Origin: Eukaryota sp. GEM-RC1 | Lineage: Eukaryota | Assembly (NCBI GenBank): GCA_040285855.1 | Contig: JAUFOQ010000006.1 | Location: forward strand, 62,001 to 126,000 | Direction: 5' to 3' | DNA: 64,000 nucleotides | Shown here: positions 24,682 through 61,716 of the stretch, piece by piece | Numbering within the stretch: the stretch's first letter is position 1 | Layout of the letters: each line of letters begins with the position of its first letter | Translations under genes and position numbers: made by a program | The notes under the pieces: generated by a model | What the model saw: only the letters and a program-made list of their open reading frames with translations | What the model was told of the DNA's origin: nothing | Database searches by the model: none

Positions 24682-24741
24682 TTAGACAGTAGTTTAAACT
24701 TTAAAGTACTGTCTGGTTGTTTTAATCAAAAAAGTTGTCTA

Positions 24742-31010: not shown

Positions 31011-31357
31011 TGGAGTGTTAAGAGATTCATGTTTGACTATTAGTAGGAGTGAAGAAGAAGAAACTGTATCAACCAAAAAAAACGATGGTGGTCCTCTTAA
31101 ACCATATCAAATCATTTTCTTACTGGGTGTTGGTTTCCAGATCTTGTGCTGCAAGTTCAATATATGCCAAACGTTATGAATTTAAAGTAGTAACATCTGC
31201 GATTTCTCCTAAACGATCAATCTTGTATTGACATGTGAATGTACTAGTACTACGACGATTACTACATACAGATTCAGAATTTGTGAATAATTTAGAATCA
31301 AATGTCCAATTTAGTTAAACAATTGGAAACTAAATTCTTAAATTCTTCTCTTGACAT

Positions 31358-35091: not shown

Positions 35092-35092
35092 T

Positions 35093-36094: not shown

Positions 36095-36198
36095 AAAGTG
36101 TCGTATGTGGAATGAATTGTTGACATTGATATTTTTTTCTTCTATATATAATGTCGTTAAACACAACCAATACAATATACAATCTCAGTTTATCAAAC

Positions 36199-38627: not shown

Positions 38628-39084
38628 TGAGTGTGTGAAGTGGTGATGTTTAAGATGCAGATTGTGCAGGGAAACTTTCCTTTCATTATAACTTATATAT
38701 CTACCTTCACTGTATGGACAATGCTGGTCGTACACAAGTCTTAGCAGCTTATTCTACCATCATCAACTTTCTATCGTCTCGTATGTCAAATTATATGTCT
38801 TTGTAAAATGTGATGTTGGTGTTGGGATCGATCTTGATGAAATAGAGCAATGTATCGTGTCATTGGACTACTTTCGAGCACTTCAACACATATCCGAGTC
38901 TTTTAAAGTCACCCCCTTGATCTTACAAATCAAACATGAGATCTCTCTCCTAGCACTCGTTGATGCCATTCTATCTGAAGACAAGGTACCTTCTGCTTCT
39001 GTTTCACTAAATCCAAGGTAATTTCTCCTCCTCCCTGCATAGCTGATGTTCCTCGTAGAAGTGGAACACACCGATCTGTGTTCT

Positions 39085-39888
39085 CTATATGTCGACTGTA
39101 ATCTCCTCATTGCTATATGTTATAAAATAAAACTGTTCTTTATACTTAAGCAATGAATCAATGAAACTCACAAACTCCTTGTCACAATCTGCATCACATT
39201 CACAAATCTCATTCACATCAAACAAGTTGAACAACGAAGACACCCTTTTAACAACAACGGACATTTCAATAAACTCCTCATCTTGACTGTTCTCACACAT
39301 AAGAATTATATCTGTCAATGGTTCAGAACATCCTGTAAACTCTTGGAATACTTCAGTAAGTAACAATTCCCTACATTCATCAACATTCAAGGACAGTAGC
39401 AAAACTGTCAATACTTTAACTAGACACTGCCGATCACTAATACTCCAAAGAAATTCGGAAATATCATTGAGAAACAATATTCTTGCACACTTTGTGATCA
39501 ACAACGTGTTATACATTGCTTGTAAAGAATTTGCAAGTACAAATAACAGGACAGAAAAACAATTTAGCATTCCCTCAACATCTACACTACTACTACAACA
39601 ACAAACAATTTTGAATACCACGTTCCACAATGGAATCGACGGCATTGTCTTACATTTCGCTAGTATATGTGAGCAGATTGAAAGTAAAGGAGATAAAGAA
39701 GTTAAGTCATCTTCAGGATTTGGATGAAAGCTCATACGATGTATGTGAGACAAAAGTGATGTCAATTTGTCAAGAGAGTTAAGTTCTCCTATGGCCATGC
39801 ATTTGATACACCCACATGCTTGTATTTGTTGAATGAGATATGTTTCAAAGAATGTTGCCAAACAATCTTGTAAGATATTGTTGGTCAT
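39085..39888 (-). CDS. Hypothetical helical protein with Cys clusters (element cargo)
   Basis: 267-aa ORF with CGCIKC and CECDADC. No family recognised. Confidence 0.55.
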   Translation of the reverse strand: MTNNILQDCLATFFETYLIQQIQACGCIKCMAIGELNSLDKLTSLLSHIHRMSFHPNPEDDLTSLSPLLSICSHILAKCKTMPSIPLWNVVFKIVCCCSSSVDVEGMLNCFSVLLFVLANSLQAMYNTLLITKCARILFLNDISEFLWSISDRQCLVKVLTVLLLSLNVDECRELLLTEVFQEFTGCSEPLTDIILMCENSQDEEFIEMSVVVKRVSSLFNLFDVNEICECDADCDKEFVSFIDSLLKYKEQFYFITYSNEEITVDI

Positions 39889-39930
39889 TGAATTGATAGT
39901 GAAGGAAAATATTTTTCCGGCAAAAATCCA

Positions 39931-41081
39931 ATGTCAGTTGTATGTCTTTATTCACTCTCATATCAGTCTTCAGATGATGCTACGTCTATGTCTGTCAATT
40001 ATAACAAGAAACGACGCTCTAACGCTTTCCGAAGAAAGAATATGAACAAGCACCAGGATGTCTATAACGTCTTTAGTTATACATCGACAAAGGTGGATGG
40101 TAAAAGTGTTCAGCTCGGTCCCAATGGGGATTATATTCTAATTTCACGACCTCGTGATAATTCAACAGATGGACTTTCTATAAGTACCAACAATGATGAA
40201 TTCCTCTCAGACTTGGTACAGTCTAAGGAAGACTTTTTGAGAATATTGTTCACTTTATTAATTCTAGAACTCAGTATTTAGCTTCCCAAGGCGCAAAAGT
40301 ACCAGACATTTCTTCACGTTTTAAGAAAGTGTATGGTATGAATGCTGAAGAAAACGAAGATCTTTCTGAGTTTTATTCGATTGCTCCTAATAGAACTCAT
40401 ATTGTTAAGAAAAAGAACAAGCACCTTAAAGAAGCTAAAGTTGTGAGCAAAGAAGCCACAACTCCAGAACCTCTCACAAAGTCCTCTCGTAACTCTCCCG
40501 TTGAATCCGCTCCTTCTAATCCTACTGAAAACAATGAAATTCAATCCTCCCTAGGATCACTTGTTTCCAAGACTTTGGGACATCAGTGTGGAAAGGAAAA
40601 GCCTATCTCAGGCAGCGATAAGAGAAAGAAGTTAGAGATAAAGAAGTTAAATGTAGGACCTGTTTTGCAGAAACAACTGGCAAGTAGAACAAAATAAAGA
40701 AGATGTTGTTTATTGAATGAGATAAGTGTGCATGGTCTAGTATAGGACTCCGAAGATGTGAAGTGAAGTCTAAGGTCTAGGTTCACTTTTCTTTCATACA
40801 TGAATCCACTGATCTAATTCTAGATAACTGAACCTCAACCTAAGAAGATTGTTGACGTTGACAGCGTTGTCAAGACTGGTCATGAGGCAGTGACTACTCT
40901 TTTAGCAAACTCTAAGCATTCACTTGACGAGAAGGAACTTGAACTCATCTTTAGTGCAGTTGCTTCCGCCCTTCGTGAAACCACCACCCCAGTAATTGAA
41001 AGAGCTATTCGAATTGCTGGTGATACTACTCGTGATACTGCTAGCCTCATACACCATATGCGATTTAAAACTCATCTTTAG
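39931..41081 (+). CDS. Hypothetical element gene, fragmented
   Basis: ORFs 39931-40281 and 40329-40697 link by one shift at a T-run (~40236: DFFENIVHF...KKVYGM). The link to 40890-41081 is unclear. Confidence 0.45.
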
Positions 41082-41201
41082 TGCAGTTGCTTCCGCCCTT
41101 CGTGAAACCACCACCCCACCCCAGTAATTGAAAGAGCTATTCGAATTGCTGGTGATACTACTCGTGATACTGCTAGCCTCATACACCATATGCGATTTAA
41201 A
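40942..41201 (+). repeat. Tandem duplication, 127-bp period, 2 copies
   Basis: AACTCATCTTTAGTGCAG...GCGATTTAAA at 40942 and 41069. The second copy has a 5-nt insertion. Confidence 0.92.
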
Positions 41202-41754
41202 TTTGTTTTTATAGATCATTATTGTAGTTTTCTTTGTTTAGATATCAATAAAGCATCCCGTTCTTCTTTTGTTTCAAGTCTCTTCCTTGTTAACACGAAA
41301 TCAACATATACGTTCTAGTTCAATGCATTGTCAATGTTGTGATACACAAGAGCATTGAAAATAACATTGTTGATGTATTAATTAATGAATGATGTCAAGT
41401 AAGTAAGTACAAAAATGTTGTATTTGAAGTGTAGGAGATATCCGAAGACAGAAAAGATGTCTGCTATCTGTAGACAAACAAGACAAGACTCCAAAAATGA
41501 ATACTGCAATTTCACTTTTCTTCTCTCTTGACATGCGTATGATCCTCCATCTTTCTAACTATAGACATTGTGATGATGCCAAAAGTAAGTTTTGGTCACG
41601 ATATGTGCTTGCTGCCACGTATATCTATGAGAAGTGACCTCTTTACATAGATGGCAATTCCGCTCTTCTTGTCAATTTGTCTCCTGCACTCGACAATTGG
41701 GCAAGATGAGTTGGGTTGTCATCTGGTGTATCGTGGTTGCACTCATTGCTTTGC

Positions 41755-43600
41755 TTTGCGTCCACATCCGCCATTTCTCAATTCCGCCATCCAGATACTG
41801 TTTCCATTGCACGGTCACGGGATTTGGATGGTGGGTTGAAGGAATGTGTTGTTCCGTGGTTTTCTCTTTATACACTTCTTCTGTGATGATGCTCCTTCAG
41901 TTATCTCCTCTGCTGAAAACACTGGATTTCTGACTGATTCTTGCTGAATGCCTCTTGCATTGTATGTTTCGTAGATCCGCTTGAAGATTGTCCTCTGAGA
42001 AGTATGGTTGTCTTGTGATTTGTCTTGGCCATACTGTATAACTTTCTTCGTTCCATCGTGATTGAGCCATTGTTAACAATCAAACAGATCGCTGAAAATC
42101 CTGAATTTTTAATCAGTAATCGTGCATCGGCCATACTGTATAACTTTCTTCATTCCCTCCGTTTCATTTCTCTCTGCTCTTCTTCTCAAAGTCATAATGG
42201 GAACATCTTGAGCAATAGCTTGGTGGTATATCTTCGTTCCTCTATACAATTCAGAAGTAGAGTAGATCAACAGATGTAAATGGTCTTTATGTCATATACA
42301 TCACCTCTTCAAATCCTGCCACCCCCGCTTCTTTGGGAACAAAATTCGTTGGTGAAAAACAGAAAATGTGACTTTCAATATCAATTAAGTTGGGGGAGAT
42401 ATCCAGATCAATCACTGTCCTGTTAATAGACAGAATTTTGCATAAAGTAATAAGGCCTTTCATACTGGGACTTCTCAATCCAAGACTGCGGGAGAAATCA
42501 ACTCCATTACCATTCAAATGAAAAAAAAATCTCTCTTTAATGTCTTTCTGTTTCCAGGCAATGGAATACTTAGTCTCATTGTCATGTTTGGCGTCCAATC
42601 ATAATCATTACACGATGTTGTTAGATCATTACCTTCAATGGAAACGACCTGCCCGCTATGTTTACAGTTTCCCAAGCACATAGTTCTACCAGCCACAAAA
42701 CTCTCCGATTTTATCAATGATTTATGTGATAGTGATTTGCAAGAAAGAAAAAACGTGTATAAAATTGTAAAACACACGTTCAAAACAATGGAATGATGTC
42801 ATGAGTTCTGAGAATAACAGTGGAGAATGTCGTTCATTCGTTGCTCTCGTACAACTTTTCTGTCTTTTTACGATTTGTTTATCTAAATTAGTTTTTTTGA
42901 AAAAACTAGAGCGATATTTAAATGAACTAAGATCTTAATTTCACGTTTCGTGGATATGGAAGATTCTAATGTATGTTTCCTTTGCTAAAACAACTCTCAA
43001 CTATTGAAGAATCCGAATTTGTTAGTTCACTACTGTCAACCCTGTCACCTCAACTGAACCCGAAACCCTGCAATGGAGTCTATCTTAAACAGGGTATCTT
43101 AAACAACAATTAAAAAACGATAAGGAAGGCTTTTCAACGAGGTTTTCGAAACTTTTCTTAGTTGATTTAGCTGGATCTGAACGTGTTGGTGATGCAGGAA
43201 CGTCAGGGATTGGCTTGGTGATCCCTAATACTATAAGAAACCCTGCAATGGAGTCAGTCTCGAGTTGAGTTAGATAAGGATAGGGAGGCTGTATCATCAA
43301 AGCTACGGCAGTGGAGGTTGAAAATCTACTGTTTATCAACAAGTGCAGTTGTATTTGAGTTACAAAAAGTTTTAATTACAACTGATTCAGTTCCAAAAAC
43401 TTTCAAGGCTTGTTTCTATGAAGAGAAATTTTTTAGACGTAGACGCCTTACACAGTATTCAAGAAAAGAACGAAGTGAACAAAACTTGGTCCACAGATTT
43501 GCTCTCCAATAAGGTGATCCAGATTTTCACATGAATCAAAAACTTGCCATTGGAACGTTGAATATAGACAACGACGTTGTCGAAACTCTTCATACAGAAT
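41755..43600. other. Patchwork of short fragments copied from the element's own genes and from host genes
   Basis: At least 12 segments match other parts of the element, plus an LRR-gene fragment and a kinesin LVDLAGSER fragment (see findings). Confidence 0.88.
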
Positions 43601-44004
43601 GTTTTTGATTTAAACTTTTCGTTACTAAAAAATTGTTTTAGTATCTTCAAGTAAATCTGTAGTTCTCATCATGAAAAGAACCAGTCACAAGATAATTAAT
43701 AAAGTTAAGGCTCATTGTTCTGGGCCATCCTTTGTTTGTACTGAACAGAATCACAATGAAGGTCAACAATGTGTAAAGAAATGGCGACTTCCACGAATTA
43801 AGTGTCAGGACCTGTTTGCAAATTCTTGAACAATAGATGGTTAGGACAATACAAATTGTACATTAATCCACGTGAATGACAAATTCAACACAATGAATAA
43901 ACCCTTGTTTGTCTACTGTCGTATTGTATTGATTGAAAGTCAAAAATGGAATTTTTGTTAGACTATGACTTACTTTAGACATAAATTTTCCTCTCTGTAC
44001 AAAC

Positions 44005-45703
44005 ATGTCAACATCATTCCGTGTCCGCCAACGTTTTCCCAAACAACAGATGCAACTAGACTTCGTAAATGACATTCCTGCGGAAGTTACAGATGTTGAA
44101 ATAATCATCGTCCAAGACACTGCGGGCGACTTCTTCATTGTCGTAGTGTATAATGGACATATTCAATACCATTTAAATCTCGTTCTTGTAACATCAGACG
44201 TTGCACAAACAAAGTTCCTTTTCAGCTTAACATCGTCCTCTAATCTTCGTGCAATCACTCCCCTTGAAGATACACAGTGTATTAGCGACGTGATATCTTT
44301 CATCGTAAAAACCACCCTCTCATCTCATAACCTGATTGTATCCCCTTCTTCTCTTTCCAGTTTGACTAAAACAGTTAACGAGGCTCTTGCTATTCCTGTT
44401 AAAACTACTACTCCTTCAATTTCTACTTCATCTGATTGTTGTTATGTCTATTCAGTTATCCATTTTATTATACGTCACATTGAACGTTTCTTCGAACTCA
44501 ATGTAAATCATTTCAAAGAACTAGATTTTGATACTCCTGCTACTCCTCTCTTCAATTGTTTTTATTCGAAAGATATTGAAGGTGTTCGTGCGCAAATCGC
44601 TGACATTTATCCTGTTTTTGCGGCGGGTCAACACGATCCTTTCAATTTCCTTGCCAAACTTTTAAAAACACTTGACAAGGAATTCCGCACCACCTTGCCA
44701 TCTTCATCAAATGATGAATTACACTCTTTGTCAAAAATTTGAACCACAGTCTGAATCAGAAGAAACTGATACTACAGACTTCCAATATTATGGATATGAT
44801 TTAGATGAGAAACCATCACCAAAAAAAGTTCAGACTCAGTTAGATGTCAAATCATCACTTCAGCAAGATTTAGATCAATTGTTGATAACTCAAAAATTAA
44901 AGCATTCTTGTGCTGTTAATGCATTTTGTTTCTGTATTAAAACAACAACAAAATGTTCTTGGTGTGGGACTGATCCAACATCTAAAATTCACTTCGCCTT
45001 GGAAATTAACAAGGAAAGTATCCAAAGGCGGTATCCTTCTAGACCAACCGATCTCGAATCATTGTTGCAAGCTCATCTACCTTTTCGAAAAGAAATAATT
45101 TGTGCTACTTGTCCTGAACAAAAATCAGAAATTACTGAAACTTTTGCTTCTCTTCCAAAAGCTCTTATCATTAGACTGACTGGACATCCTCAACCAGTTA
45201 TTATTTCTTCAAATCTATCACTCTATCTATTCCTGTCTTCTGAAGCACAATTGGGTTCAGAATCGATTGAGTTTTCCCCTACCAATGAAATCAACTCACA
45301 ACTGCCACTTAAGGACATTTACACATTGTCTCATTATCCAACATCAGAAGAATTGTCTGTCTTTGACATTTCTAATGAAAATGAAAGAAAGTGTGGGAGT
45401 CAGCATTTTGTTAGAGGTAGTGATTGGGAAAGAAGTACCAGTCGAACCTCAACCGCCAAAGTGTCAACCAAGACCAAAAGTAGTGTTGAAGAAAAATACA
45501 CATACAGACTGCTGTCTGCGATCTGTCATTACGATTCCCTTGCTGACGGTCACTGTGTGACATATGCAAAGGAAAAAGAAGGTTCTTGGTGGTTACATGA
45601 TACCAATAGTGATTGCAAGAAAGGTGTAGACGAACAGACAGTATTAACTGAGATTTCTTTAAATGGCTATGTTTTACTTTATCAACATCAATATTTAGAA
45701 TAA
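44005..45703 (+). CDS. USP-family (peptidase C19) deubiquitinase-like protein, frameshift near 44735
   Basis: Cys box-like SDCCYVYSVIHFI, GQHDPFNFLAKLL, CSWC...CATC, SLPKALIIRL, His box YRLLSAICHYDSLADGHCVTYAK..WWLHD, GYVLLYQ. Confidence 0.85.
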
Positions 45704-45853
45704 ACGCATAGTAATAAATTGTTCTACATGTATCTAAGAGAAAATAAAAGTGTACACAAAGCGATCCTTGTAAATGTAGTTGTGAAGACATGAGAATTCC
45801 TTGTTCTATCAGTACAGTATAGTTGTTTACAGCTCCATAATTTTCCCACTCCA

Positions 45854-48800
45854 ATGACTTCTATTATACTGCTAACACCCCTCGCCTCGTCCACATCCGC
45901 CATTGCTTCATCACATCACCCAAACACTGTTTCCATAGCACGGTCACGGGATATGGATGGTGGGTTGAAGAAATGTGTGGATACGTGCTTCCCGATGTCG
46001 TTTCCGCTTATTCTGTGCTCTATCCTCTCGTCCACATCCGCCATTGCTTCATCACATCACCCAAACACTGTTTCCATAGCACGGTCACGGGATATGGATG
46101 GTGGGTTGAAGAAATGTGTGGATACGTGCTTCCCGATGTCGTCTCCGCTTATTCTGTGCTCTATCCTCTCGTCCACATCTGCCATTGCTTCATCACATCA
46201 CCCAAACACTGTTTCCATAGCACGGTCACGGGATATGGATGGTGGGTTGAAGAAATGTGTGGATACGTGCTTCCCGATGTCGTCTCCGCTTATTCTGTGC
46301 TCTATCCTCTCGTCCACATCTGCCATTGCTTCATCACATCACCCAAACACTGTTTCCATAGCACGGTCACGGGATATGGATGGTGGGTTGAAGAAATGTG
46401 TGGATACGTGCTTCCCGATGTCGTCTCCGCTTATTCTGTGCTCTATCCTCTCGTCCACATCATGGAAACGTGATCTCTCTATCGATGGAGACGTTGAGCA
46501 GAATCCAGGTCCCCATGATCGTTTACCATCCCCAGAAGTAAAGAGACCCAGAAGAACTTCTGTGTCACCATCGCCTCCTCCATCTCTGCCAGAACCGCCA
46601 ACTGAAGAAACTCTAACAGAAGAACCGCCAACAGAAGAAACTCAGCTAAAACAAAAGAAACATAATCAAAGAACTAAATACCACATGGGCATATTGCATC
46701 GTTACTGCCGTATTCCACATGAAACTTTTGCCCATCCAGTGCTAAGATCTGGAAGAACACCTGGTTTCCAAGTTTGTTCATGTATGAATCATGTTTTTAT
46801 AGATGAATCCGAAAACTTAACTGATCTCGCTCCAGATGTCATTCCCAATCCAGACAATGAATCACGACGCTCGTTCCTGGCCCAAATTATGCAAGAGTGT
46901 TGCAAACCTGGTGACACGCCAAGTAATTGGAGAATTGAAAATTACATCATGGCCAAACACTATGAATCGGAGTTGATTGAATGTCAACAAGATGCTAATC
47001 ATTACTTGCTCAGTTATGATGGAGCGTTGGAATCCCTCCATAAATATTGGTGTCAATTGTGTGACCCTAATCGAGAATCTACTGTGAGTTTACCGATTAT
47101 GCCTCTTGGATTCAAATATGAGATGCCTCCCCATTGTCCTCAAAAACAACCTTCTTTTCGTGAATCGTTTTGCCTTTTTATTGCTCCATGTCTCTTCTGC
47201 CTTCTTCCTGGTCACAGTTATAATGATTGTCCCTTCCAAACTTTTAGACTTAGTGATGTTTCATTAAGTATCACATCCTTGTATCAAAATATCAACCCTA
47301 AAGTTTTGGTACGTCCTGAGGTTATGCTGGACATTTTATTAACAATGCTCCATCTGCAATTTGTTGTGGATGAGAAGAAACTCAACCTTCAAGTGTATGA
47401 TCGTACGAATAATCATTTTACTTTGGAAATGTTCAAAGAAAACCAAAAAGTGATTGAAAAGTTTGCAAAGTCAAAAGCTGGTTATAAACTCAAAATGTTA
47501 ATCTTTGATATTGCTCATGTTATTGAATTAATTGAAAAGAAGCCCCCAAAAAACCTGATGTTGATGTCAAAGATTCTGATTTTGAACATACTGACGATCC
47601 TACAGACGATCCTTTAAATGATGACGAATTTGATGATCTATATAATCAAACTTCTCTTAGTATTATGTGGGATGATTTTAATAATATCAGAGATTCGTCA
47701 TACACTTCTCAATTACTTTCAAGATTTTTTAACTTTTGTCATTTTCTCGAGCACTATACTTTTGTGGATACAGATGAAGAAAGCCGCATTGTCGAAATTA
47801 AAGACCCTGAAACTAAACAAGTTGTAGAACGGAAAGAAGTTTACCGACATCAGTTTACTGTATATCAAGATTTTTTCGAAAACAAAATTGAAACTATGAG
47901 TATGCTCATGTTCCAACTGTCATTTTGTGCCCATTACCATTCAAATGAAAAAAAAGATCTCTCTTTAATGTCTTTCTGTTTCCAGGCAATGGAATACTTA
48001 GTCTCATTGTCATGTTTGGCGCCCAATCATAGTTATTACAAGATGTTGTTAGATCATTACCTTCAATGGAAACGACCTCCCCGCTATGTTCACAGTTTCC
48101 CAAGCACTGCAACTGTGGCTTCACCAGAGGAACCAACGTCGGAATTTACATCAATTGATTTTCCTAAAGTATGCTCTAAATTAGCACATTTGAAATCTTA
48201 TGTCCGCGAAAGTGATTTACTAACACAAATTCTTGAAATTTTGACAATAAATGAACAGTGGAATCATACTGTTGACAGTAATGACGCCTACTTCCACTTG
48301 GTGTTTTCTTGCTTTCAGTTGATTTCAAAAGCACGTAACTGCCGTATTGCATTTGTTAATGAAGGAAAAGACACTTTTTATCAATTGTTTCGTGTTGTTG
48401 GTCAAAATCATGTCAAAGACAACAATATTATTCCGTTTATTGTTTCTGGTCAAACAGGTTCCGGGAAATCTGTCTTAACTGGTGTTGTTGTGGTCATGGT
48501 TACTTTGAAACCAATCATTGTGTGTCAACCTAGAGTTCTACCAGCCACAAAACTCTCCAATTTTATCAATGATTTATGTGATAGTGATTTTCCTCTGTCT
48601 GGATACCGAACAGGCAACAAGAATACGAACATTCCAGTACATTCACCAAGATTTATCGAAGTTCAAACCGCTGCCTTCACTTCTAAATTTCTGACAAACA
48701 ATAGCAATCTGTCTCGATTTGCAACTATCATGGTGGATGAAGTTCATGAAAGAAAATGTGACATTGACATTTTATTAGCACAAATGAGAATAATTTCCCA

Positions 48801-51800
48801 AACTGATTCAAAATTGAGAGTGGTAATCTGTTCGGCAACTATGGACAAACCTAATCCTTGTTTTAATTACCTTACACAAGGAAATTATTTAGATAACGAA
48901 CCCTCCTATACTATCCATGCAGCTGGAAGAACCAATCCACTGATTGTCCTTGATGTGAATCTTGTTCGTCAAAATGAATTTCATTATAGTCCCTTAATAT
49001 CAAAACTTGTGATAACTCCGATTTTTGAACCTACACTTCAACAGGTTTTCAATGATCATTTTATTGATATTTACACTTATTTTGTCTTAAATGTGAACTT
49101 ATACTACGACTATTTCACTCAAAACTGTAATCCTCTTTCATATAAAAGTATCAATTTCAGAGCGTTAGCCCGACTATGTCTCTGTTATTACTCCCTGTCT
49201 CAGAAACTTTTCCGGTATGAACCAGAATGTACAGGATTTACTTTGCTCGTGTTTCTTCCTGGAAGTCCAGAAATTACAACTCTCAGTAATATTATTGAGA
49301 ATGAGTATGAGAGTCAGAAAAAAGTGGATCTGGTGGTCTATACATCCCAGCTTCTTCTGAGAAGCCAGGTGTGTATCCGTTGTATTCAAGTCTGGATTCA
49401 GTCCAACAAGATGCAGCTGTGGCTAAACCAGCGAAAAAACAATTTAAAATTGTCATTGCTACCAATATAGCAGAATCTTCCTTGACTATTGATGGGGTCA
49501 AATTTGTCATTGACTGTGGTTTGTCAAAGCAAACTGATGCAGATGACCTTCTCGACACTCATCATTGCTCCATTGCTTCTTTGGACCAGCGCTCTGGTCG
49601 TGCTGGAAGAAATTCTCCTGGACTTTCGTTACGTCTTGTGCAGACAAACTTATATCCGGATGGAACTTCGAGATTGCATTATGATAAACCAGAAATTCTA
49701 ACTTGTTCGTTGATTGAGCCATTGTTAACAATCAAACAGATCGCTGAAAATCCTCAATTTTTAATCAGTAATCGTCCAAATCCCCCTGAATTTTTTTATC
49801 AGTCAACTGCCTGATGTTCCTTCTAGCGACAACATCATGTCTTCGGTTGATGTTCTTTTCCGCACTAATGTTCTTTCAAAAACCAACTAAATTCTCCCCT
49901 TACTTATCTCGGAAAGATTTGCACCAATGCCAATATTTCATTCTACAACTTCAAGTTTTTATTTTTCTGTTTAACAAACAATTACCTGTGTCCTGGATTG
50001 ATTCTTCTTGCGGGTATCAATTCTATGTCGTTCATTCGTTGCTCTCGTACAACTTTTATGTCATTTTACGATTTGTATACCTTTTCACAATCGATTCCTT
50101 TACTCAAACAACTCTCTACTATTGAAGAATCTAAAGTTGTACGTTCAGACATGTTTTTCAAATTATCCTTGGTTCATTACATTTTATGTGGCGAATTTAT
50201 TAAAAATCTGGATATTGTCCCAACACGTGATCAAACCCTTAATGATCAAGCCCTTAAGAATTTATCTAAATTAGTTTTTCTGAAAAACTAGAGCGATATT
50301 TAAATGAACTAAGATCTTTAGTTTCACGTTTCGTGGATATGGAAGATTCTAATACTCATCTCAAAAATCAATTAAATGTATTGGAAGGCATTGCTCTAAA
50401 GCTTGTCAATTTCATATCAAATCCTTCTGAAGTTACACTCAATATGTTTCAAAATGAATCAACAATCTTCTCTTCTCTTTTGAACCTCCAAATTCAACGA
50501 CGTCTCTCTTTCAAGCCATTGTGGCTTCTTATCCCAATAAGTCATTCCATTCAACTGTAGTAGACAATTCATTCTCAGTTAGGTTGAAGTTGGAAGGTTA
50601 TGTCAATGGAGAAAAATTTAACAACTTTATAAAGAAATTGTTTGATGAACAAAATATTGTCAAATCTTCCAAATCTCTAAAAGTTAATGACAGTGGTGAT
50701 GACAGTACTCGTTCAGAGACATTATGTTCAAAAGTTAAAATTACTTCAGATCTAGCTCCAGGTGAAACCCAAAGCACTGTTGTTATGTTGCATTCAGAGA
50801 ATACAACTGAAATTGAAAATCTACTGTTTGTCAACAAGTGCCGTGGAACTCTTGATTCATTAAAAAAAATTTCTCTTACGTTCCATCTTGATTGGCATAG
50901 ATTCATTATCAAATCACGATTCAATTTATCAATGGCATTGAAAGTTGTCAATGACCGAGAATTTTGGAACATGTACAACCAATTGTTACAGTGGGGTAAT
51001 ATCGTACATTTGACTATACCAAGAAATTCTATTAAATTAACTTTCGACATTATGTCAAGTCCTTGTAGTGATTTGACTCAATACACTCGTATTGATAATG
51101 AGTGGTCCAAGGAAGTTAAATGTGCCAAATCACTGTTCCCTGTACCTACAGATCTAGGTTATCATAATGGTATTTCTGTTGGTGATAAGTTTCCACAATT
51201 CTTGTCTCATATTCCTTCTTCATGTCAATACTTGTTCATCGTATGGCAAATGAACTTCAATATCAATTTGGTTTCGGAAATGGCAAAGCCATCTATCAAG
51301 GTTGGTACACCAATGCATTGTCAAGATTCGAGGTTCAAACAATTAATTGCATACAGTAATGAGCTGGATATTCATGGATCTTTTGAGGTAAAACGTGTCT
51401 GGAATGTTTACTGGCCTTATCATGAGTTACCAATCGAATCCACCTTTGGATGTATCAATCGATTACGTATTTTGGTATATTTAACGGAACAAGGTGAGGT
51501 TCCCATAACTGTGTTGAAATCGTGGTATGACAACATTATTATTCTTGATTTCAACTTACTGAAAAGTAACAGTCCACCAGTTACCGTGGATTATGTGAAT
51601 GGAAGGAAACATCATTTCCAGTTACTAAATTTCCAAGTCAATGATGAACAGGACCTGTTGATGTGCTTTGATCCTGCGTGTCCTTTATGTGCATCATCAT
51701 GTACTACACTTAATGAAGTAGTAAATTCTGAAATTACCTTAGCCCAACACAAGGTTGAAGAACCTATGATCCCCGAAAACGCTGACCTTCCTGAACCCAT

Positions 51801-53529
51801 GATTAGTGAAACTACTGCATTGCCCCAGTCACCAGTAGCTACAAGTACTTTGGATTTGTCATCTTGGACTAAGTCGTATTGTACTGCCTCTTCTCATACT
51901 GCTAAATATTTAGGACAAAATGTTCAAATCTTAAATTTTACACGTGAAGAAATGAGAACTTTCTATGTTGTTTTTTCATTTGAATCAAAAATTGCCATTG
52001 GAACGTTGAATATAGACAACGACGTTGTCGAAACTCTCCATACAGAATTTTTTTCTGCTAATACTCCTACTCCTACTCCTACTCCTGTGTTGAATGTTAC
52101 ATTACGATTTGTAGTCTACAACATTGATAAAGAACTCCGAAGGTTCAGTCGCAGTATTGATGATGATAGACCACAGTGTAAACCATTTGACAATCAATTG
52201 ACTATGTTTGCACTTCATCATCAATTGCTTTACCAGGCCATACTGATTGCTTTTGAAGGGCCCATATTTATGATTCAATACAAGCCAAAAACAGACAAAC
52301 GAAAGACTATTCGACAAGTATTACCGTTGCCGTTGGCCAGAGACAGTTTTGATTCTCAATGTATTGACATGGCTGCTGCAAAAATTGTTTTGTTGTCGCA
52401 ACGAAGACTCTGTTGTTGATCATTTTTGTGCAGGAAGATGAAAAAAATTGTGTTAATTGTTCAGAATTATCAACATTAATGGATTTAAACATGTCTGAAA
52501 TTGATCGTGACGAAGAATTCAAAAGTTTGAAGTGCTATGACGATTTCGTTCTAGTTGTCGGCACTTGTTCCATCCGAAAGTTAGACTTGTATGAAAGGGA
52601 GCTGCTTGGTGAACAACCTGTATGGGAATTTTGCTCCTGTCACAAAGATGACAGAATTATAGATGCAGTGTATGTTAAGCATTATGACACAATAATGTAC
52701 ATCACGGAATTTGGGTTCTGTGTTGGTTTCGGTTTGAAACTACCAAAGAAACAGATTCAATTTATTATTGATTGTTCAAGTGGTGAGTTCACAGGTCAAC
52801 TGTTAAAAATCGATTTTTGCAATGATTTAAATTCTTTCATTGTTCTGAAAAGGATGGAACACTGTTAATGCTTTCAGCATTATCTGTGATTGGTATTTCT
52901 GGTGTACCATTAGAAGTTCATGATGTTCGCTCTTGTGATTCAAAAAATATTTACGAACAACGAAGTCTTGAACTACATGCTTTAACTGTTCAATCGACTC
53001 AACAAGTTCAACAAGTTGAGATTCCTGTTGTTGAAGAAAGTGCTCATCCCATCGACATTGATACGACGAAAAGACTTCAGTTTCTTTCATCTAGATGGAG
53101 TGTTGATGAAAAAATGAACAAGGTGAAGCATTTGTTGACTATATTTGAGTTACAAAAGTTGTAATTACAACTGATTCAGTTGAAAAAGTAAGGAAACTTT
53201 CAAGGCTTGTTTCTGAGGTTGCTTTTAAAGTTGTGACACTAGAGGGTGGAAAACCACGAAAGATTACATCAAGTCTGAAAATATTCGATGAACAGACTGA
53301 TCCTGTTTTATTGATCAGTACTACTCAATTAGCGGTTAACCATTCTGTTCGGGCTGATCTTTGTATAATCTTTGATCTGCCAAATGATGCCAGACATGTT
53401 TACAATTTGTATGAACATAATCAAAAAATCGTTGTCTTTTACGATTCTATCCGTGATAAGGACAAAAAGCAAAATTTGGAAAAACACTTCTTTAGACCCT
53501 CAGGATTGCAAGCACTTGATTTTATATAG
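45854..53529 (+). CDS. ~2550-aa polyprotein: 47-aa repeats, 2A peptide, CCHC knuckle, DEAH/RHA helicase, long unknown region, degenerate helicase-C-like end (many 1-nt frameshifts)
   Basis: DVEQNPGP, CLFCLLPGHSYNDC, GQTGSGKS, IVCQPR, MVDEVHER, ICSATM, LVFLPG, IVIATNIAESSLTIDGVKFVIDCG, QRSGRAGR. Consecutive + ORFs link mostly at homopolymer runs. Full continuity is inferred. Confidence 0.75.
45886..46461 (+). repeat. 4 x 141-bp near-identical tandem repeat upstream of the first 2A motif
   Basis: CCACATC phase at 45891, 46032, 46173, 46314 and 46455. Confidence 0.95.
46463..46513 (+). other. 2A-like ribosomal skipping (StopGo) peptide WKRDLSIDGDVEQNPGP
   Basis: Exact D(V/I)ExNPGP consensus, in frame with ORF 45854. 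Confidence 0.88.
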
Positions 53530-53998
53530 TCTTTCAATAATTCATTGATGTTTTTTTATTATGTAGAACAATATAATAATTATAAGTCTTTATTACAATT
53601 TTTCTTTATTTATCAATCAACGAAGAAGTTGATTGATTGGGTTTATCTGGTCTAAATTTATAATTTATTCCATGATTTTTCACATAAACTATGCGACCAC
53701 ATCTACACTGAATATGTAACAAATTGGTCTGGTTTTATATGTCACATTTTCTGACATACTAAATCTGTAACAAATTTCTGTCAGATTTCAGGTGGATGAA
53801 ATTCACGGATTGTTCTGTGTGTAATAACTATGTAACAAAACATTGGTATTCAGACTACGTCTGACACAGTTCAAACTGCAAAATTGAACATTGTAATATT
53901 GTACAATTATTATTGTTTATTTGCTGTGTTATTCTTATATGTTTTACAAAATTATAAATACATCTATATTGTACTATTTATTCTCTATCACTGTCAAT

Positions 53999-55524
53999 TC
54001 ATTTTTTTAAAAGTCTTTTTGATTCCAAAAGCACTTGCAGTGGTTTTAATTCTTCGTTTTCCTGTTTTTTCCCTAAAACTTCATTTTCGTCTTTTGTCTT
54101 TGACGATTTGTTTTCAAATTTTGTTGTTGAACCATCAATTACATTTTGTTCTGTCACCAAGTCAGGTTGTACACTCTGAAGTAGATCATACATAACAAGA
54201 CATAGATTTTTTCTTGATCTGTTAGTGTTTAATTTTGTCTGATTTTGTTCCTGACGTGCATCAACCATTAATCCTTGTAAAATTAAAGTAACATTCAAAC
54301 AGACAATCCATCCACAGATAAGAGACGATGTTGACTGTGCAAAAGGTATATAGTAGTCCACCTTATACTCTGGTAATCTTGCAAACAGATTTGTTTCCCC
54401 ACATCCATAAACAGTTCTAAAAGGATTAACGATTAATTCAGTGGTTAATGAATAATCCAAAGAATCATAAATATTGAATAATAAAACATTTGCTTCATTT
54501 AGAAACAATTCAATAAGAATCCAATGACCAGATCCTGCATCACCAGGAACATGTTCTTTCACCAAACATAATGGGGCAAGAATTCTTTTCCTGATTTTAG
54601 TGTATCGACAATAGCCTTACCAGAATGTAAGGCATAGCATATTGGATCACCTACCAACTGTTGAGTTTCTTGAGATTGCAGGAATTTGTACCTACTTGAT
54701 TTAAATTTTTGGAATGCAAGCATCACAATGAAATCAAGTTCAGAACTCAACAAGAGTTGTGTTTTACCTTCCCTATCATCCTTTGTCAACATTTTCTCAA
54801 TATCACTAAATTCAAATTTTAATTTTGAATTTATGTAAAACTGATCACTGATTAAATCTACAGAAAGAATCAACGGGTTACGTTGTTTTTTGCGTTTCAT
54901 AGGTTTAGATAAATTAGCATTATCACTGACTGGAACAGGAACTATTTCAGATGGTTCAGAGAAAATAGAATGAATATGATTGATTGCGAAGTTATCAATA
55001 CGACGTTTTGGTGAAGGAAAAACGACTTGCGATGGAGTATCGTCAAAGCGAGTATTGTCACAATCATGTAAAAGAGGAGGAGACTGAGGCTGAGGAGGAG
55101 GAGGGGAACGAGCAATTGTAACTCGTTTAACGTCTTTGAGTAGATCCTTAAGATGATTTAGAGTTGAAGTTGTTGAAGGAAGTGGAAGAGATATGTCACG
55201 CTTCTCATAAGAACCATCAAAAGGAAAGAGATGAACAGTTTCTAGATCAACATCTAGCACAATGGCAACGGCTGATTTGTAGTTGAGGCAAAAATCCATG
55301 GTACCCTTTTTAAGATCATCTGGTAAGTCAGATGTTGACACTTCCGTTATGTGGATGGATTTAGTTCTCCATGAATTGTATGTTCCATAAGGAAGAAGAA
55401 CAAGTGACAAGTTAACTGCATGCTTATCAGCAAGCTTTACAACAAGTTTCATATATGTTTTGATGGTACGGGAACGACTTTCTTGTTCAGAAGTATTTCT
55501 GAGTTTGAAGATTGAGTAGGACAT
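53999..55524 (-). CDS. Ulp1/SENP-like (peptidase C48) cysteine protease with N-terminal extension, frameshift near 54570
   Basis: GSGHWILI (His), IYDSL (Asp), AQSTSSLICGWIVC (Gln, Cys). Upstream LLSSELDF lies in ORF 54559-55524. Confidence 0.78.
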
Positions 55525-55638
55525 GGGAAATTCTGATATAGACTTTATTACAGTTTTCGTTTTTTAACACGTGAATTCACACACACATGTCCATTACAGT
55601 CTGTGTGGGATTTCATTTTCCTTCCTCCTACAGTATAA

Positions 55639-58600
55639 ATGTCGTTTGTTCTGCATCCAAACAGATGTTGTCCGCCATTCTGTCCTTATCTGACTCAACT
55701 TGTGACTGACTCCATTGCACGGTTTCGGGCTCAGTTGAGTTTAGATAAGGACAGTTCTTTCCCTCCACTGCCTCCACTTCTGTTGCTTCGATAATGCCGC
55801 CATTCTGTCCTTATCTGACTCAACTTGTGACTGACTCCATTGCACGGTTTCGGGCTCAGTTGAGTTTAGATAAGGACAGTTCTTTCCCCTCCACTGCCTC
55901 CACTTCTGTTGCTTCGATAATGCCGCCATTCTGTCCTTATCTGACTCAACTTGTGACTGACTCCATTGCACAGTTTCGGGCTCAGTTGAGTTTAGATAAG
56001 GACAGTTCTTTCCCCTCCACTGCCTCCACTTCTGTTGCTTCGATAATGCCGCCATTCTGTCCTTATCTGACTCAACTTGTGACTGACTCCATTGCACGGT
56101 TTCGGGCTCAGTTGAGTTTAGATAAGGACAGTTCATTCTGTGTTTTATCAACACATACATTTGTTGCCATGAAGTACTCGTCTCCCCTGTTTATCCCTTC
56201 CCATCCTCCGTTCCCAAAAGACCTCACCGCTGATGGTGATATTGAATCCAATCCAGGACCCGTAACTCAAGAAGCCATAAACTCAGTTTATCCTAATCAA
56301 TGGGTTGATGACGAAGCGATAGTGGAGTACTGTAAAGTGATATTTCAACAAGCAGGGTTAGACTTTGAAAGCATGTTTATCCATCCGACCACATGGCTTC
56401 AATACATTGTTTCACCAGATGTCCCGCTAGATCAATGGTTGTTGACGAAAATTCAGCGAAATCAAAGAACAAACTCCAAATATCTCTTTGTTCCCCTTAG
56501 TGATACCATGACTAGAAATGCTAATTATTCCAGAGAAGGTGTCACTGGTTCTATTGGGGTTTAGCCATTATAGACTGTTGTGAAAAGGAATGGATCTTCA
56601 TTGATCCGATGTTAACTACCGTCGATATGAGTAAGTCTATGGTAAAATCAGCTGTAGACATAATATCCGAACTACTTGTGCCATGGGGGTATGTTTTCCG
56701 TTATGTGCCTGTGACTAAAACACAATCTGCTAACGACTGTGGAGTTTATGTCATTGCGTATATTCAAAAATATGTTGAACTTTTTAAAAGACTCACGTAT
56801 GTTCCGTCTCTAATGTATTTGGAAACTTATTTGGTCCAAGTGAACATTGAACTTCAAGCAAACATATTTTGTGAAAAAATTCTGGAGGTCTTGTCTCAAC
56901 AAAGAACACTTTATCTACAACAACGTCAAACCACAGTAGCTCCTATTGTACCATCGTTACCCATTCAACCTCCTGCCGGTAAAGAACATCCAACCACTTC
57001 AATTCCTCTCACAGGTTCACGTCTTGCTAGCACTAAAGCATCTACTGGTTTAAGCACTAAAAAAAGTAAAGCCAAAATTTCTGATATTCCATCACCACGA
57101 GGTTCACCTTTAATTCAACGAAATAAATTTAGAACTACCAGCTCCCTTGTTTCAACTGGTGACACTCCAATGCGAAAGACTCACCGCCGTATGTCCACAT
57201 TGGAATCATCGGAATTACCATCATCTGAACTATCATCGCCATCTGAACTATCATCATTAACTGAACTACCACCATCTGAACTACCACCCAAATCACAGGC
57301 CTCCATTATGTCGTATCCATCGCCAATTCAAGAAGAAATCCATAAAATGGAAGTAAATCTACACACTGAGCCTATCGAACAAGAAATACAAATTCAAGAC
57401 TTTCTTAATTCCCCTTTACTTTGGAACAATCTGCCAACTTTTTGTTTAATTCATGTTCAAAGTGATTTTGCCAAAAAGAAAGAATTAATGGCAAAAATGT
57501 TCAACTTGTTCAAGATGATGATGACATTGAAACTGTTGAAGGTGAAGCTGAAAATCAATTAGAAGTTAAACGTGATTCTTCTGTTGATCCGATTGTATCA
57601 ATTTCCATCCAGATCATTGATCACAATGAGTTTAATGAAAAACATTTATTTTCTCATGGCAATTTTGATACTACAAACTTGGATTTGTGTACTTTACATA
57701 TTTCAGATAGTGAATCCAGTATGCTTAAAAACTTCATCTCCTTCATTACTCAACATTGTCCACGATTGTTTGTGAGTTATGACTTTCACTTAGATACATT
57801 TCCCTTTCTTGTATCACGTTGTCAAGTCCTCAAAATCAATACAACGTTTACTTTTCCAGAATTTAAACCCTATATTCCCTTTTGGTTCAACAAATGGTGT
57901 AAGGAAACAACTTTTGGTCCGTTTTTTAGTCTCGATTTGAATGCTGTACTGAAGAATTTTTATGTCTTTACTGGTGGCCGTTTTTTGGAAAATGTTGTTC
58001 AAATTTTTCTTGAAATGAATAATTTTTCTAAAAATGAAACTGTCAAACGCTTGGAAGAACTTAATCATGACTCTGATCCTGATGAAGTTCAATTGATCAA
58101 TAATGTCCAAAACTTGCATGGCATAATTGACAGTATTAATGTTTTAGTTCCAGACAATCCCAAAGTGAAGGTCGATAAGATTAAAAAGAAATTTGTAAGA
58201 AATTTGGAGAAAGTAAATGAACTTTGGGCCAAGGAATCGACAAGACCGCTATTGTTGATGAACTCAATTCAACAATTACCTCTGATTGAGTACTTGTTGG
58301 CTGACCTACTGGATCCCAAAAAACAAACATTACGTTCAAAGTCACCAATGAAAGTGGTTAAGAAACGACTAGACAATGTTGTATTCAAATCGAAGGTTAA
58401 ATTTATTGAATCTCGTGTTAAGAGAGCTCATCAAGTAAGAGTACGTGGTTCTCTCTTTTTGAAACATTTTTTGTTCATAATTTTCATCATTCGGGTATTT
58501 TAGGTTACATTAAGAAGTTACTGCCTGCTACTGTTCCAAATGTAACTGTTAAGGAAGAAATGAATTCTGATACAAATGAGTCAACTGATGAAGAAACAGA

Positions 58601-61222
58601 TGTACATTCAGAGTCTATCCATGCTGCTACTCCTCCTATTAAATTAGAAAATATTGAAGATGTGAGTGGTGAACCTGAACTTGACCTTTGGACCAAAATT
58701 CAAACTAACAAATTTGAATTGCCAGACTGGAAGAATTTTTTACGTTGAAATCAATGGAACAAGTGTTATCTATGATGACGATTAGGGACGAAAGACTTGT
58801 AAACAATCAGAATCATATTAGGACTGTAAAAGAGTCTTTAGAAAACATAACTTCTAAACCAAATGAGGCCTCAACTCAAAATCAGTTTGCTCAACACTTC
58901 TTGATGCATTACATTCCTCGTTTAGAACTAGCTGCTCGATCTGTTGGACTTGATAGGATTGTGTTTCCCAGTAGTCATCGTTTATCTCGTATATTGCATT
59001 ACATGGCTACTGAAATTATAACGAATTACAAGACTAACATGAGTGAACACTTTCACGAATATGTTTTTCAGGTATTTAATTTGGTTATCCTGAAAAAGAT
59101 AGACTTAACAAGCTTACTGATAAGAATCAACGACAAGAGTTGTGTACAAAGCTTAATGAAGTCAGACAGTTGATCATTAATGGGGAAATTTCAAAAATTA
59201 ATTTTCAAGATGTTGAAGTGTTTCCTGATCCCAATTCTAGACTGAGTTTACTATTTTTTAACTATTTGTTTACTTTTTTTGAAGGTAAAATGGAAAAAAC
59301 AATCTATTATGCTGAAAAAGTAGATCCTTTGAAATTCTTAAGTCATGCAGTGTATTTGAAACGTCTTGTTGAAGACTCTTGTACTGGTGTTACTGCCAAT
59401 AATCCTTTTCCTCTGACAAAATCATTGATTCCTAATCATATTAGGTTGGATACTTCATGGTTTAAAGAAGTTTATACATCAGAAATTAAAGGTAACTTTG
59501 ATGACGTTCGAAAAGATATTTGGCACTCAGTTTTGAAACCAAAGTGTCTTCCAAAGTCATTGTCTCATGACTTCAAATACAGTTCTATTTCTACAGATGG
59601 AGTTAGCTGTAGTTTAATGATGATGCGGAAAGATCTGCTTGATGGGAGAGGAAATCCTCATAAGAAGGTGAAAGCGGTTAACCACACCAGTACTGAAAGG
59701 TACATTGATTCTTTGAGTTCAACAGAAATTCAAAACTTAAATTTGAAATCAAAAAGAATTGTTGCTATTGATCCTAATCAGCATGATTTGATGTACTGTG
59801 CTTCTTTAAAATCTAAGGAGGAAAAGGAAATCGAAGGTTTCGATACATCAGCCAAACTCAGAAGAAGAAAGATTTCTCCAAAATCATCAAAGAAAAAAGG
59901 AAGCTTGAAAAAATTAAAAAATGAATTGAAGGATTGGAAAGACGCACCCACTATTGACAAACCATCAACTGTCAAGTTGAAAAATCGTGATAATTGGAAA
60001 GTATTCAGATACACTGCTGGGGAGCGCAATGCCGATATTAAAAAGTCTCCATGGAAAAGAAAAAAACAAGGAAGGAAAGAAAAAGAGCTAAGAGAAAGAA
60101 GAGGAAGCTGGAGAAGAAAATAAGACGATATAATCTCCACCGTTTATCTGAGTCCGAACGGTTACAACAATACTCTACCCAATTTATTCACATTCCAGAT
60201 GGCAGACGCATTGACATAAATGGGCAACAAATTTTAGATCAATGGGGCTCTAACTCACCAGGTAGTAAATCTTGTGAATTGACTCAGTATTCTGCTTTTG
60301 TTCTTGGTAAAGAAATTACCTGTTCCTTATTACGATCACCCACTACTGATCAAAGAACTACTGCAGGAATTTACGAAGAAAAGTGGTTTAGACGTAGACG
60401 CTTAACACAGTATTCAAGAAAGGAACGAAGTGAAAAAACATGCTTCACAGATTTGCTCTCCAGTTTGGAAACCCAGATGAAGTCATTGTTGGGTATGGAG
60501 ACTGGAACGACACTGCTTTTCGTCGAAGAAGAGGTAAAGCATCTACTGTGAAAGGTGTTTCAATTCGGAAATTATTGAAAAAATTTGGATTTAAAGTGTT
60601 CCTAGTTGATGAATTTAAGACCAGCAAATGTTGTTCTGCATGTGTTTCCAGAAACGACGAAGGTATCTGTTCCAATCCTGAAAGGATAAAAGTCACTGAT
60701 CCTCATTGGAAGAAGAAGTTACAGAAGGAAGAGAAAGAATTAAAAAAGGAAATTATGGAACACAATCAATTAGACAATATTGTGCAGCGTAACTTTGATG
60801 ATGAATGGACTGACCAGTTGCCATTATCGAAAGAAAGATTGAAGAGCAAAAAAGTCTCACCATGGGGCTTAGTTGAATGTGCTAAATGTCATGTCCTCTG
60901 GAATAGAGACTTCAATTCTGCTATCAATATTTACAATATTGTAGATGGAACCATTCAAGGTCAAGGTAGACCTGCCATCCTCGAGAGACCAAAATCTCAA
61001 ACAACACCTGTCGTGGATGGCGGGAATACAGATCAGATTCCTAAGAAAAAGACTGTGAGTAAGGGTAAGGGTAAAGCAAAGCGTCCTCTAACAAAAGTCA
61101 GAGGTCCTAACAAGTGTGGTATATGTTTTCAACCTGGACATAACAGAGCAACTTGTCCAAATAAGCCTAAGAAAGATGTACCCAAGGACTCACACGTAAA
61201 CCAGAAAGATCAGGAATCTTGA
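55639..61222 (+). CDS. ~1860-aa polyprotein: 42-aa repeats, 2A, Ulp1-like protease, S/P linker, degenerate PolB-exonuclease-like domain, Fanzor1 nuclease, CCHC knuckle
   Basis: Eight single-base restorations (~55761, 56541, 57475, 58470, 58740, 59095, 60042, 60435) join all + ORFs from ATG 55639 to TGA 61222 (5584+8=5592 nt, 1864 codons). Motifs: DIESNPGP; GHW/IDP/TQSANDCG; IVAIDPN, VDEFKTSKCCSAC, CAKCHVLWNRDFNSAINI; CGICFQPGHNRATC. Confidence 0.8.
55672..56134 (+). repeat. ~3.7 x 126-bp near-identical tandem repeat upstream of the second 2A motif
   Basis: CCGCCATTCTGTCC at 55672, 55797, 55923 and 56049. The first unit is one C shorter. Confidence 0.95.
56211..56261 (+). other. 2A-like ribosomal skipping peptide FPKDLTADGDIESNPGP
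   Basis: Exact D(V/I)ExNPGP consensus, in frame, immediately before the Ulp1-like domain. Confidence 0.88.
58348..61222 (+). CDS. Fanzor1-type (eukaryotic TnpB-like) RNA-guided RuvC endonuclease moiety
   Basis: YKTNMSEHF, IPNHIRLDT, ISTDGVSCS, RuvC-I D (59770), VIVGYGDW, RuvC-II E (60611), CxxC..CxxC, RuvC-III D in WNRD (60908), GRP. Confidence 0.92.
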
Positions 61223-61372
61223 ATCTATGAAGTTAGCCCGTCTTAAAAGACTTTGCGAATGAGGATATTTGTCTAATAATTTAGACATTTGTTCAAACTG
61301 TGAGTTTTGCTCTATATGAGATCATGAAAATGTGAAGGGTTATGCCCTTATGCATTTGGAATGAAATTCACA
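61223..61372 (+). ncRNA. Candidate Fanzor omega-RNA (scaffold to element end 61348, plus ~15-20 nt flank-derived guide)
   Basis: Lies between the Fanzor stop and the mapped element end. Hairpins TGTCTAA-taat-TTAGACA (61270-61287) and AAGGGT-tat-GCCCTT (61335-61349). The 5' boundary is unknown and may overlap the ORF. Confidence 0.6.
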
Positions 61373-61716
61373 GTACCAAAATCTAGGCGAAAAGTGATAT
61401 TCTTGAAGAACAGAATAACTGCAGAAAACGCCAATTTACAGAATCGGTTGCTGATAAAACCAACTCTTTGTATGAATGTCTGTAATTCTGTTTTCAGATT
61501 GTGATATTGAAAAGTACCTAAACCAGAGCAAGACTTCGCTGAAAGTTTGAGCCACTGAGACGTGATTGATAGCAATAGAGAGTCCTGGAGACGGATAGAC
61601 TTGGGAGACGTTAAAGTGGTGTCAGACGGTTGAGGAGAGGAGAGGGAAAGAATGTTATCATTATCCAGTACAGTGTCTGAAGGACGACTGGACTTTAATG
61701 GAGGTTCTTCAGTCAT
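61349..61716 (-). pseudogene. 5' part of the interrupted LRR gene
   Basis: MTEEPP...IRLQDSLLLSI...RVGFISNRF..AVILFF resembles the N-terminus of LRR paralogue 24742 (ICLSESLLTLI...TLGTVSLRV..ISSFL). The stop arises only on entering the element. Confidence 0.85.

Follow-up and report, generated by a model that had tools for sequence, protein, structure and literature searches.

The Fanzor1 nuclease SpuFz1 is guided by an omega-RNA with a scaffold of 75 nt, and its guide of 14–15 nt directly follows the last base of that scaffold (PMC10432273). According to the same source, SpuFz1 cuts at 16–21 nt, guides of 10 nt are minimally active and activity reaches a plateau at 13 nt. A heteroduplex of 8 bp is described as inactive and one of 15 bp as active. 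In the RNAs of three solved Fz1 systems, the first stem-loop (SL1) has seven base pairs (PMC11423790). A review of solved Fanzor structures assigns the 3' copy of the target-site duplication (TSD) to the scaffold and the 5' copy to the TAM (PMC13565253), a rule from which the reading favoured below departs.

The window is the whole stretch of 64,000 nt analysed here. It is eukaryotic, containing the housekeeping genes MCM, Vps39, UFL1 and PCMT, and the closest named relatives of its proteins are labelled Eukaryota sp. GEM-RC1, TZLM3-RCL and TZLM1-RC. Isolates so named are described as Skoliomonas metamonads, with MinION R9 assemblies corrected by Illumina reads (10.1101/2023.05.03.539051). An LRR gene in the window is interrupted by an element of about 26 kb (Table 1), as the original prediction had stated: the unbroken paralog P0007 (942 aa) aligns in two parts on the minus strand, amino acids 1–121 to 61716–61372 and 118–774 to 35041–33062. 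Our main reading, to which we assign a probability of about 0.68, is that the element ends at 61373 between copies of an 11-bp repeat, that its last ~115 bases are likely the scaffold of an omega-RNA, and that a guide starting at 61374 or 61375 would direct a cut to the LRR allele without the element, which would likely promote the element's re-copying.

Table 1. Features of the Fanzor1-bearing element and of the LRR gene that it splits (positions in the window)
Feature	Position	Strand	Remarks
LRR gene, 3' part	32553..35042	-	one frameshift, at 33072
Predicted TAM region AAACAC	35026..35031	+	prediction from one insertion; shifts by 1–2 nt if the guide starts at 61375–61376
Left 11-bp direct repeat TACCAAAATCT	35032..35042	+	likely target-site duplication, 9–11 bp
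Fanzor1-bearing giant element	35043..61373	+	26,331 bp, ends ± 2 nt; without recognised transposase
Subterminal 15-bp repeat array, left end	35092..36089	+	split by a MITE-like insertion of ~600 bp
Pif1-type helicase cargo gene	36977..38753	-	frameshifted
Second long frameshifted reading	43969..53529	+	ubiquitin hydrolase, 141-bp repeats, 2A-like motif at 46490, DEAH helicase, helicase C domain
Upstream polyprotein part	55749..58503	+	126-bp repeats, 2A-like motif at 56238, protease-like region, exonuclease; frameshifted
Degenerate PolB-type 3'-5' exonuclease	57466..58000	+	in the upstream polyprotein part
Fanzor1 coding region	58455..61222	+	five frameshifts (about 58469, 58732, 59097, 60060 and 60436)
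Fanzor1 motifs		+	RuvC D 59770, E 60611, D 60908; C4 zinc finger 60629/60878; C-terminal CCHC knuckle 61115
Omega-RNA SL1 (predicted)	61263..61294	+	7-bp hairpin 61270–61287 on a 5-bp lower stem; pair probabilities 0.9–1.0
Omega-RNA three-way junction (predicted)	61297..61374	+	z −4.5, 1/300 shuffles (78-nt window picked after the fold was seen); topology shared by related loci, with covariation
Right 11-bp direct repeat	61374..61384	+	predicted first 11 nt of the guide
Predicted 15-nt guide TACCAAAATCTAGGC	61374..61388	+	prediction from the fold; start may be 61375
LRR gene, 5' part	61374..61716	-	start codon at 61716

The 11-bp-repeat ends are favoured by colinearity with the paralog, by repeat statistics and by the fold when compared with 61 related loci. 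Between the end zones, 35000–35110 and 61320–61420, there are 64 exact repeats of at least 4 nt (43 of 4 nt, 15 of 5, five of 6 and one of 11), where chance predicts 42.6 of 4 nt and 0.004 of 11 nt; the 11-nt pair is the only repeat longer than 6 nt. When 2637 open in-frame junctions were scored against P0007, the top junction (score 414) removed 26,342 bp, the exact spacing of the 11-bp repeat, and was gapless at the junction. Neighbouring registers scored 409 and 406, so that the protein score locates the end approximately and the exact base is set by the repeat. The original prediction had put the right end at 61348 with a TATG duplication. This repeat belongs to a class found at chance level; it is one of three repeats of at least 4 nt inside the ends that give open in-frame joins, and its junction scores 378 against P0007, with 24 residues inserted. 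We therefore prefer the 11-bp repeat and, on colinearity, repeat and fold, place the end 25 bases later. Under this reading the former end, duplication, guide and TAM (35083–35091) all fall inside the element and are likely wrong. The flanks that had been quoted are present, at 61349 and 35078, and 126 nt do separate the Fanzor stop (TGA, 61220–61222) from 61348, but the distance from stop to element end becomes about 151 nt.

If the duplication is 9 bp, the element would read 5'-CTG...CAG-3'; no terminal inverted repeat (TIR) longer than 3 bp was found at its ends. Ends and duplication are drawn from a single insertion and a single paralog, the predicted protein of which could be spliced, and across copies conservation is predicted to stop at 61373 ± 2, not at GCCCT(TATG). 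Exact scans of metagenome and viral contigs with patterns of the right end gave 0 loci, as did those of prokaryote genomes with the left repeat, and a protein scan of viral contigs gave none that was confirmed. Two of eight exact look-ups for chimeric proteins reading across the left end in other copies were found, both single-member clusters, and a further search for such proteins was without matches. On the LRR strand (-), the element edges resemble those of an intron, with GT within the right repeat and AG within the left one after a pyrimidine-rich run (35032–35070); a transcript spliced at these edges would keep its frame and carry a duplication of two codons. Removal of the whole element from the LRR transcript as an intron was set aside as unlikely at a length of 26 kb.

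The DNA behind the Fanzor stop is predicted to fold into a compact structure that runs up to the repeat. The best fold is that of 61260–61374 (z −6.8, equalled by 0/300 shuffles); the longer segments 61223–61374 (z −4.4, 0/300) and 61223–61372 (z −3.5, better than 200/200 shuffles) also fold well, the 126-nt region 61223–61348 is marginal (z −1.9, 13/300 equal), and 61260–61374 deprived of its last 26 nt has a z of −0.4. All three stems reported earlier exist, although the first is weak: 61240–61251 has −1.3 kcal/mol and a pair probability of 0.54, 61270–61287 has 7 bp and −6.1 kcal/mol, and 61335–61349 has −5.7 kcal/mol. A linker of 2 nt separates the lower stem of SL1 from the three-way junction, in which 61297–61307 pairs with 61364–61374 as the closing stem around a small hairpin (61310–61320) and a long one (61328–61357). 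What had been taken for the guide, 61349–61372, is predicted to pair as part of the scaffold, supplying the 3' arms of the long hairpin and of the closing stem. Replacing 61349–61374 gave an equal fold in 7/4000 cases with random pieces of the window and in 0/2000 with shuffles, borders having been picked after the fold was seen; with the borders of the original prediction the figures were 46/1000 and 35/1000 respectively. The flank after 61373 behaved like random DNA in this test (535/1000), and in the predicted fold 61375–61384 is unpaired, the first base of the repeat alone pairing in the closing stem. The arrangement expected of a Fanzor1 omega-RNA, in which a 7-bp SL1 precedes a stem closing on the final base of the scaffold, is thus predicted for an end at 61373, not at 61348.

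Related Fanzor1 loci provide a scale for this fold. A metagenome scan gave 80 of them (L001–L080; protein identity 29–37%), of which 72 gave a Fanzor frame; 11 were dropped (no end motif, 4; short flank, 2; duplicates, 5) and 61 distinct loci were profiled, 38 of them in alignment A4. Each locus end was taken as the shared motif, with DNA variable from +2 on. A first measure, the position of the last long-range pair in each folded segment, proved noisy (23/61 within ±3 of the end) and was replaced, on the same 61 loci, by a per-position pairing profile. Mean long-range pairing is 0.77–0.98 over the nine bases before the end, 0.28 at +2 and at most 0.14 beyond. With its end at 61373 our DNA shows 0.91–1.0 and then 0; with its end at 61348 pairing is 0 before the end and strong in the flank. 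The consensus fold of the 38 aligned loci comprises SL1, linker, terminal-base closing stem, small hairpin and long arm. Of its 20 pairs, 10 show compensatory changes, although the closing stem is nearly invariant. A covariance model of these 38 loci (R1) gave 31 weak matches and 0 at the right end of the window element, so that the likeness is one of topology, not of sequence; Rfam returned three chance-level matches for the window RNA, none above the gathering score. The suggestion that the tail is the Fanzor's omega-RNA is borne out to the extent that its fold topology matches the related loci, and we consider this tail most likely to be an omega-RNA of the element's Fanzor1, with a predicted scaffold at ~61260–61373.

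The 80 loci belong to a Fanzor1 element family that is widespread in metagenome contigs. Its members share a fixed terminal motif, and their omega-RNA, of ~110 nt, shows covariation and in some cases overlaps the gene end. These elements are ready candidates for prediction of guide and TAM.

A guide drawn from the flank was expected to match the uninterrupted LRR allele, and this holds for the corrected guide too. A transcript would run past the element end and be trimmed to about 15 guide bases; Fanzor would bind this omega-RNA, read the TAM just 5' of the duplication and cut the empty LRR allele about 16–21 nt downstream, as SpuFz1 does, and repair from the occupied chromatid or homolog would restore the element. 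Should the frameshifts be real rather than assembly errors, the RNA might be served by a Fanzor in trans. Homing of a 26-kb element is what we infer from these parts; as no transposase was found, the excision that restorative homing needs stays a presumption. At the occupied left junction the guide matches at positions 1–11 and mismatches at 12–15. With the duplication inside the guide, this junction would offer both the TAM and 11 matches and would be told apart from the empty allele only by positions 12–15. The guide-length data for SpuFz1 make self-protection with an 11-nt self match plausible but marginal.

Most of this self match would be removed if the ends stand and all or part of the 11-bp repeat is a target motif of fixed sequence, its 5' copy holding the TAM, its 3' copy belonging to the scaffold and the guide starting later (up to 61385). 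Such an arrangement is the rule in the solved structures reviewed above, the TSDs of MCi-2 are given as 11–12 bp with a fixed first part (PMC3627910), and the position that follows the end motif is invariant in 58/61 related loci. Yet the predicted fold leaves all but the first base of the right repeat unpaired, the guide of SpuFz1 is described as following the scaffold's last base without a gap, and the TSDs of CRe-1 are reported to be variable (7–19 bp) and to follow immediately on a fixed TTTT, consistent with a TAM that lies outside the duplication (PMC3627910). We regard a fixed motif as unlikely and retain a guide that contains the duplication.

By search scores and fold ranks, the nuclease is closer to Fanzor1 than to Fanzor2 or TnpB. 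PF07282 scores above cutoff in the window Fanzor; the copy P0170 matches SpuFz1 (E 8.5e-15) and PpFz1 (3.7e-9) and has no match to Fanzor2 at E<=1; and ranks 1–7 of a fold search, whose query model had a mean pLDDT of 62, are all Fz1, the nearest solved structures being SpuFz1, PpFz1 and GtFz1. The RuvC D-E-D triad and the C4 finger are intact, with the E close before the finger, and the C-terminal RD motif is present. The family is multi-copy: it comprises 35 close proteins in four clusters, two of them encoded by the window and some being halves of one copy, and 24 proteins were listed from the first four family clusters.

Whether the system still works depends on how the frameshifts are read, and the window copy's Fanzor is made only if they are assembly errors, which is probably the likelier cause. 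Each frameshift lies in or beside a run of 5–7 nt, with no stop among the aligned codons. P0162, P0169 and P0170 (644 aa) are open across the frameshifts at 60436 and near 60060, and P0001 and P0005 (69%) across the three proximal ones; among listed copies at least 90% identical, none is open from exonuclease to stop. The LRR and PCMT host genes are broken by similar frameshifts. Host genes at 31355–31990, 5675–7758, 2–4864 and 24679–27968 also read as overlapping frames, and the PCMT gene resumes in another frame after an A run, which points to homopolymer assembly errors. Were the frameshifts real, the omega-RNA could be a true relic of a family that is dead or merely rearranging, without cutting or homing. 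Five frameshifts in the Fanzor region, breaks in nearly every cargo gene, a MITE and a fragment mosaic inside the element, ten listed family proteins that start at a Met just after the 60436 shift and a degenerate exonuclease motif would suit such a history, and CrFNuc-1 is reported to have bound its RNA without cutting (PMC10530073). Against it stand the lack of nonsense codons among the aligned codons, breaks that sit in homopolymers and differ between copies, the housekeeping methyltransferase gene broken likewise, the MinION R9 origin of the named relatives' assemblies, described as corrected with short reads, and the conservation of catalytic residues and stop in copies 87–97% identical. 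We judge a relic to be quite improbable.

Very improbable indeed is an element spanning 35092–61348 with a TATG duplication and a guide from 61349/53, its 72 extra bases stemming from a small earlier insertion, or from a GT-AG intron of 66 nt together with a duplication of 6 nt, into which the element later jumped: TATG does stand on both sides with an open in-frame join, and the minus strand has GT and AG with a pyrimidine-rich run around the extra segment, but the 11-bp repeat would need a second event, the supposed host flank would pair with the element interior as it does in the swap test, the end would lack a closing stem, and 54–70% of the guide would be paired, where the 61 relatives have a median of 30% and reach 66% at most.

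From the reading frames, Fanzor1 appears to be the C-terminal module of a 2A-like/PolB-type exonuclease polyprotein (55749–61222). P0014 and P0179 (1473 and 1479 aa) are whole and carry in one frame a 2A-like motif, a PolB-type 3'-5' exonuclease (E 5e-13) and Fanzor1; the window polyprotein has the same module order, with a degenerate exonuclease motif where the acidic motifs are intact in P0014, which comes from a related protist. The 2A consensus is given as D(V/I)ExNPGP, and non-LTR retrotransposons are reported to carry 2A-like motifs (PMC3708506). In our element, tandem arrays with units of 141 bp (45886–46461) and 126 bp (55672–56138), 98–99% identical, each lie just upstream of such a motif. 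Two protease-like regions, 53999–54616 (-) and 56250–56900 (+), are presumably of Ulp1 type, judging from His, Asp, Gln and Cys motifs; they had no Pfam match as Ulp1-type proteases and adjoin a ubiquitin hydrolase (44666–45703).

Two further features mark the interior of the element. The MITE-like insertion in the 15-bp array, at about 35199–35793, has 25-bp inverted ends with TA on both sides, and by rule we take it to be Tc1/mariner-like. Between 41759 and 43606 lies a mosaic of 14 pieces of 32–177 nt, 80–98% identical to their sources and 1001 bp in total. The sources are the element's own downstream genes, including Fanzor (43417–43524); there is also an LRR-like piece (42347–42481), and a piece at about 43120–43240 that we take to be kinesin-like. 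No repeat was seen between the mosaic pieces, which could be filler DNA left by break repair or could give rise to silencing RNAs.

No transposase, Rep or recombinase was found by Pfam in 46 long and 67 shorter frames of the window, nor by PHROGs in 14 window frames, the frameshifts lowering the sensitivity of both searches; atlas searches with two uncharacterised frames gave no usable family. Assignment to Helitron or Helitron2 is not supported, Pif1 being found but no Rep (HUH) family in the same 46 + 67 frames at that reduced sensitivity; nor is a Crypton, with no recombinase detected in the scanned window frames; and a DDE assignment is likewise not supported, with no transposase match and no TIR beyond 3 bp. 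The 9–11-bp duplication does fit the 9–10-bp TSD length of the MuDR type, again with neither a transposase match nor a TIR >3 bp. It is possible, though doubtful, that the element belongs to a new group of protist transposons, giants of about 26 kb that lack a recognisable transposase. In these, Fanzor1 would come last in a 2A-skipped polyprotein, a fused PolB-type exonuclease would trim either the guide RNA or the ends of the cut DNA, and a guide holding the duplication would tell self from non-self only at positions 12–15. Among the matches listed, no title or abstract describes a natural exonuclease-Fanzor fusion or this element, which is a weak indication; supplementary Fanzor catalogues could list such proteins.

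Prediction of omega-RNA, guide and TAM from element junctions is routine, and the first version here would give a truncated scaffold and a wrong TAM. This kind of omega-RNA is already known; what differs is the long duplication inside the predicted guide together with the 2A-like/exonuclease-fused Fanzor, and these are more unusual than the RNA itself. The locus suggests that exonuclease and Fanzor are naturally fused in a giant element present in many copies in a metamonad-type protist. How a Fanzor1 carried by an element with a long duplication spares that element's left junction could be tested cleanly here, a question that the solved Fanzor systems, with their TA-type duplications, do not address; with dozens of copies, one alignment would yield the TAM and the TSD rule.

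Set beside known systems, the element most resembles SpuFz1, PpFz1 and GtFz1 as described (PMC10432273, PMC11423790), which are its best sequence and fold matches and share the RuvC D-E-D with E just before the zinc finger, and, by prediction here, an RNA immediately downstream of the stop codon, in which SL1 has 7 bp and a final stem precedes the guide. Spu-1 itself is given as about 2.1 kb long with 30-nt inverted repeats and a CATA TAM; our element, by contrast, has 26 kb, no TIR found, a duplication of 9–11 bp that would be part of the guide, and a Fanzor that ends a polyprotein. The L001–L080 elements share SL1, linker, terminal closing stem, small hairpin and long hairpin, but have a fixed terminal motif and a free-standing Fanzor of ~650 aa; the five for which a left end was observed, out of the first 40 checked, measure 2–3.5 kb, against 26 kb here. 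Mucor MCi-2 and Chlamydomonas CRe-1/2/3, as reported in PMC3627910, likewise carry Fanzor1 at the 3' end, have no ordinary TIRs and show comparably long TSDs (11–12 bp and 7–19 bp) with a transposase that is unclear or absent; unlike them, the window element is several times larger, has helicase, protease and exonuclease cargo, and showed no detectable Crypton recombinase or Helitron Rep. A guide from the right flank, a TAM from the left flank and the empty site as target, as predicted here, also recall the restorative homing of IS200/IS605 and IS607 TnpB (PMC13565253). That homing is described in bacteria for scarless elements of 1–2 kb, whereas the present case would extend it, by inference, to 26 kb and a long duplication.
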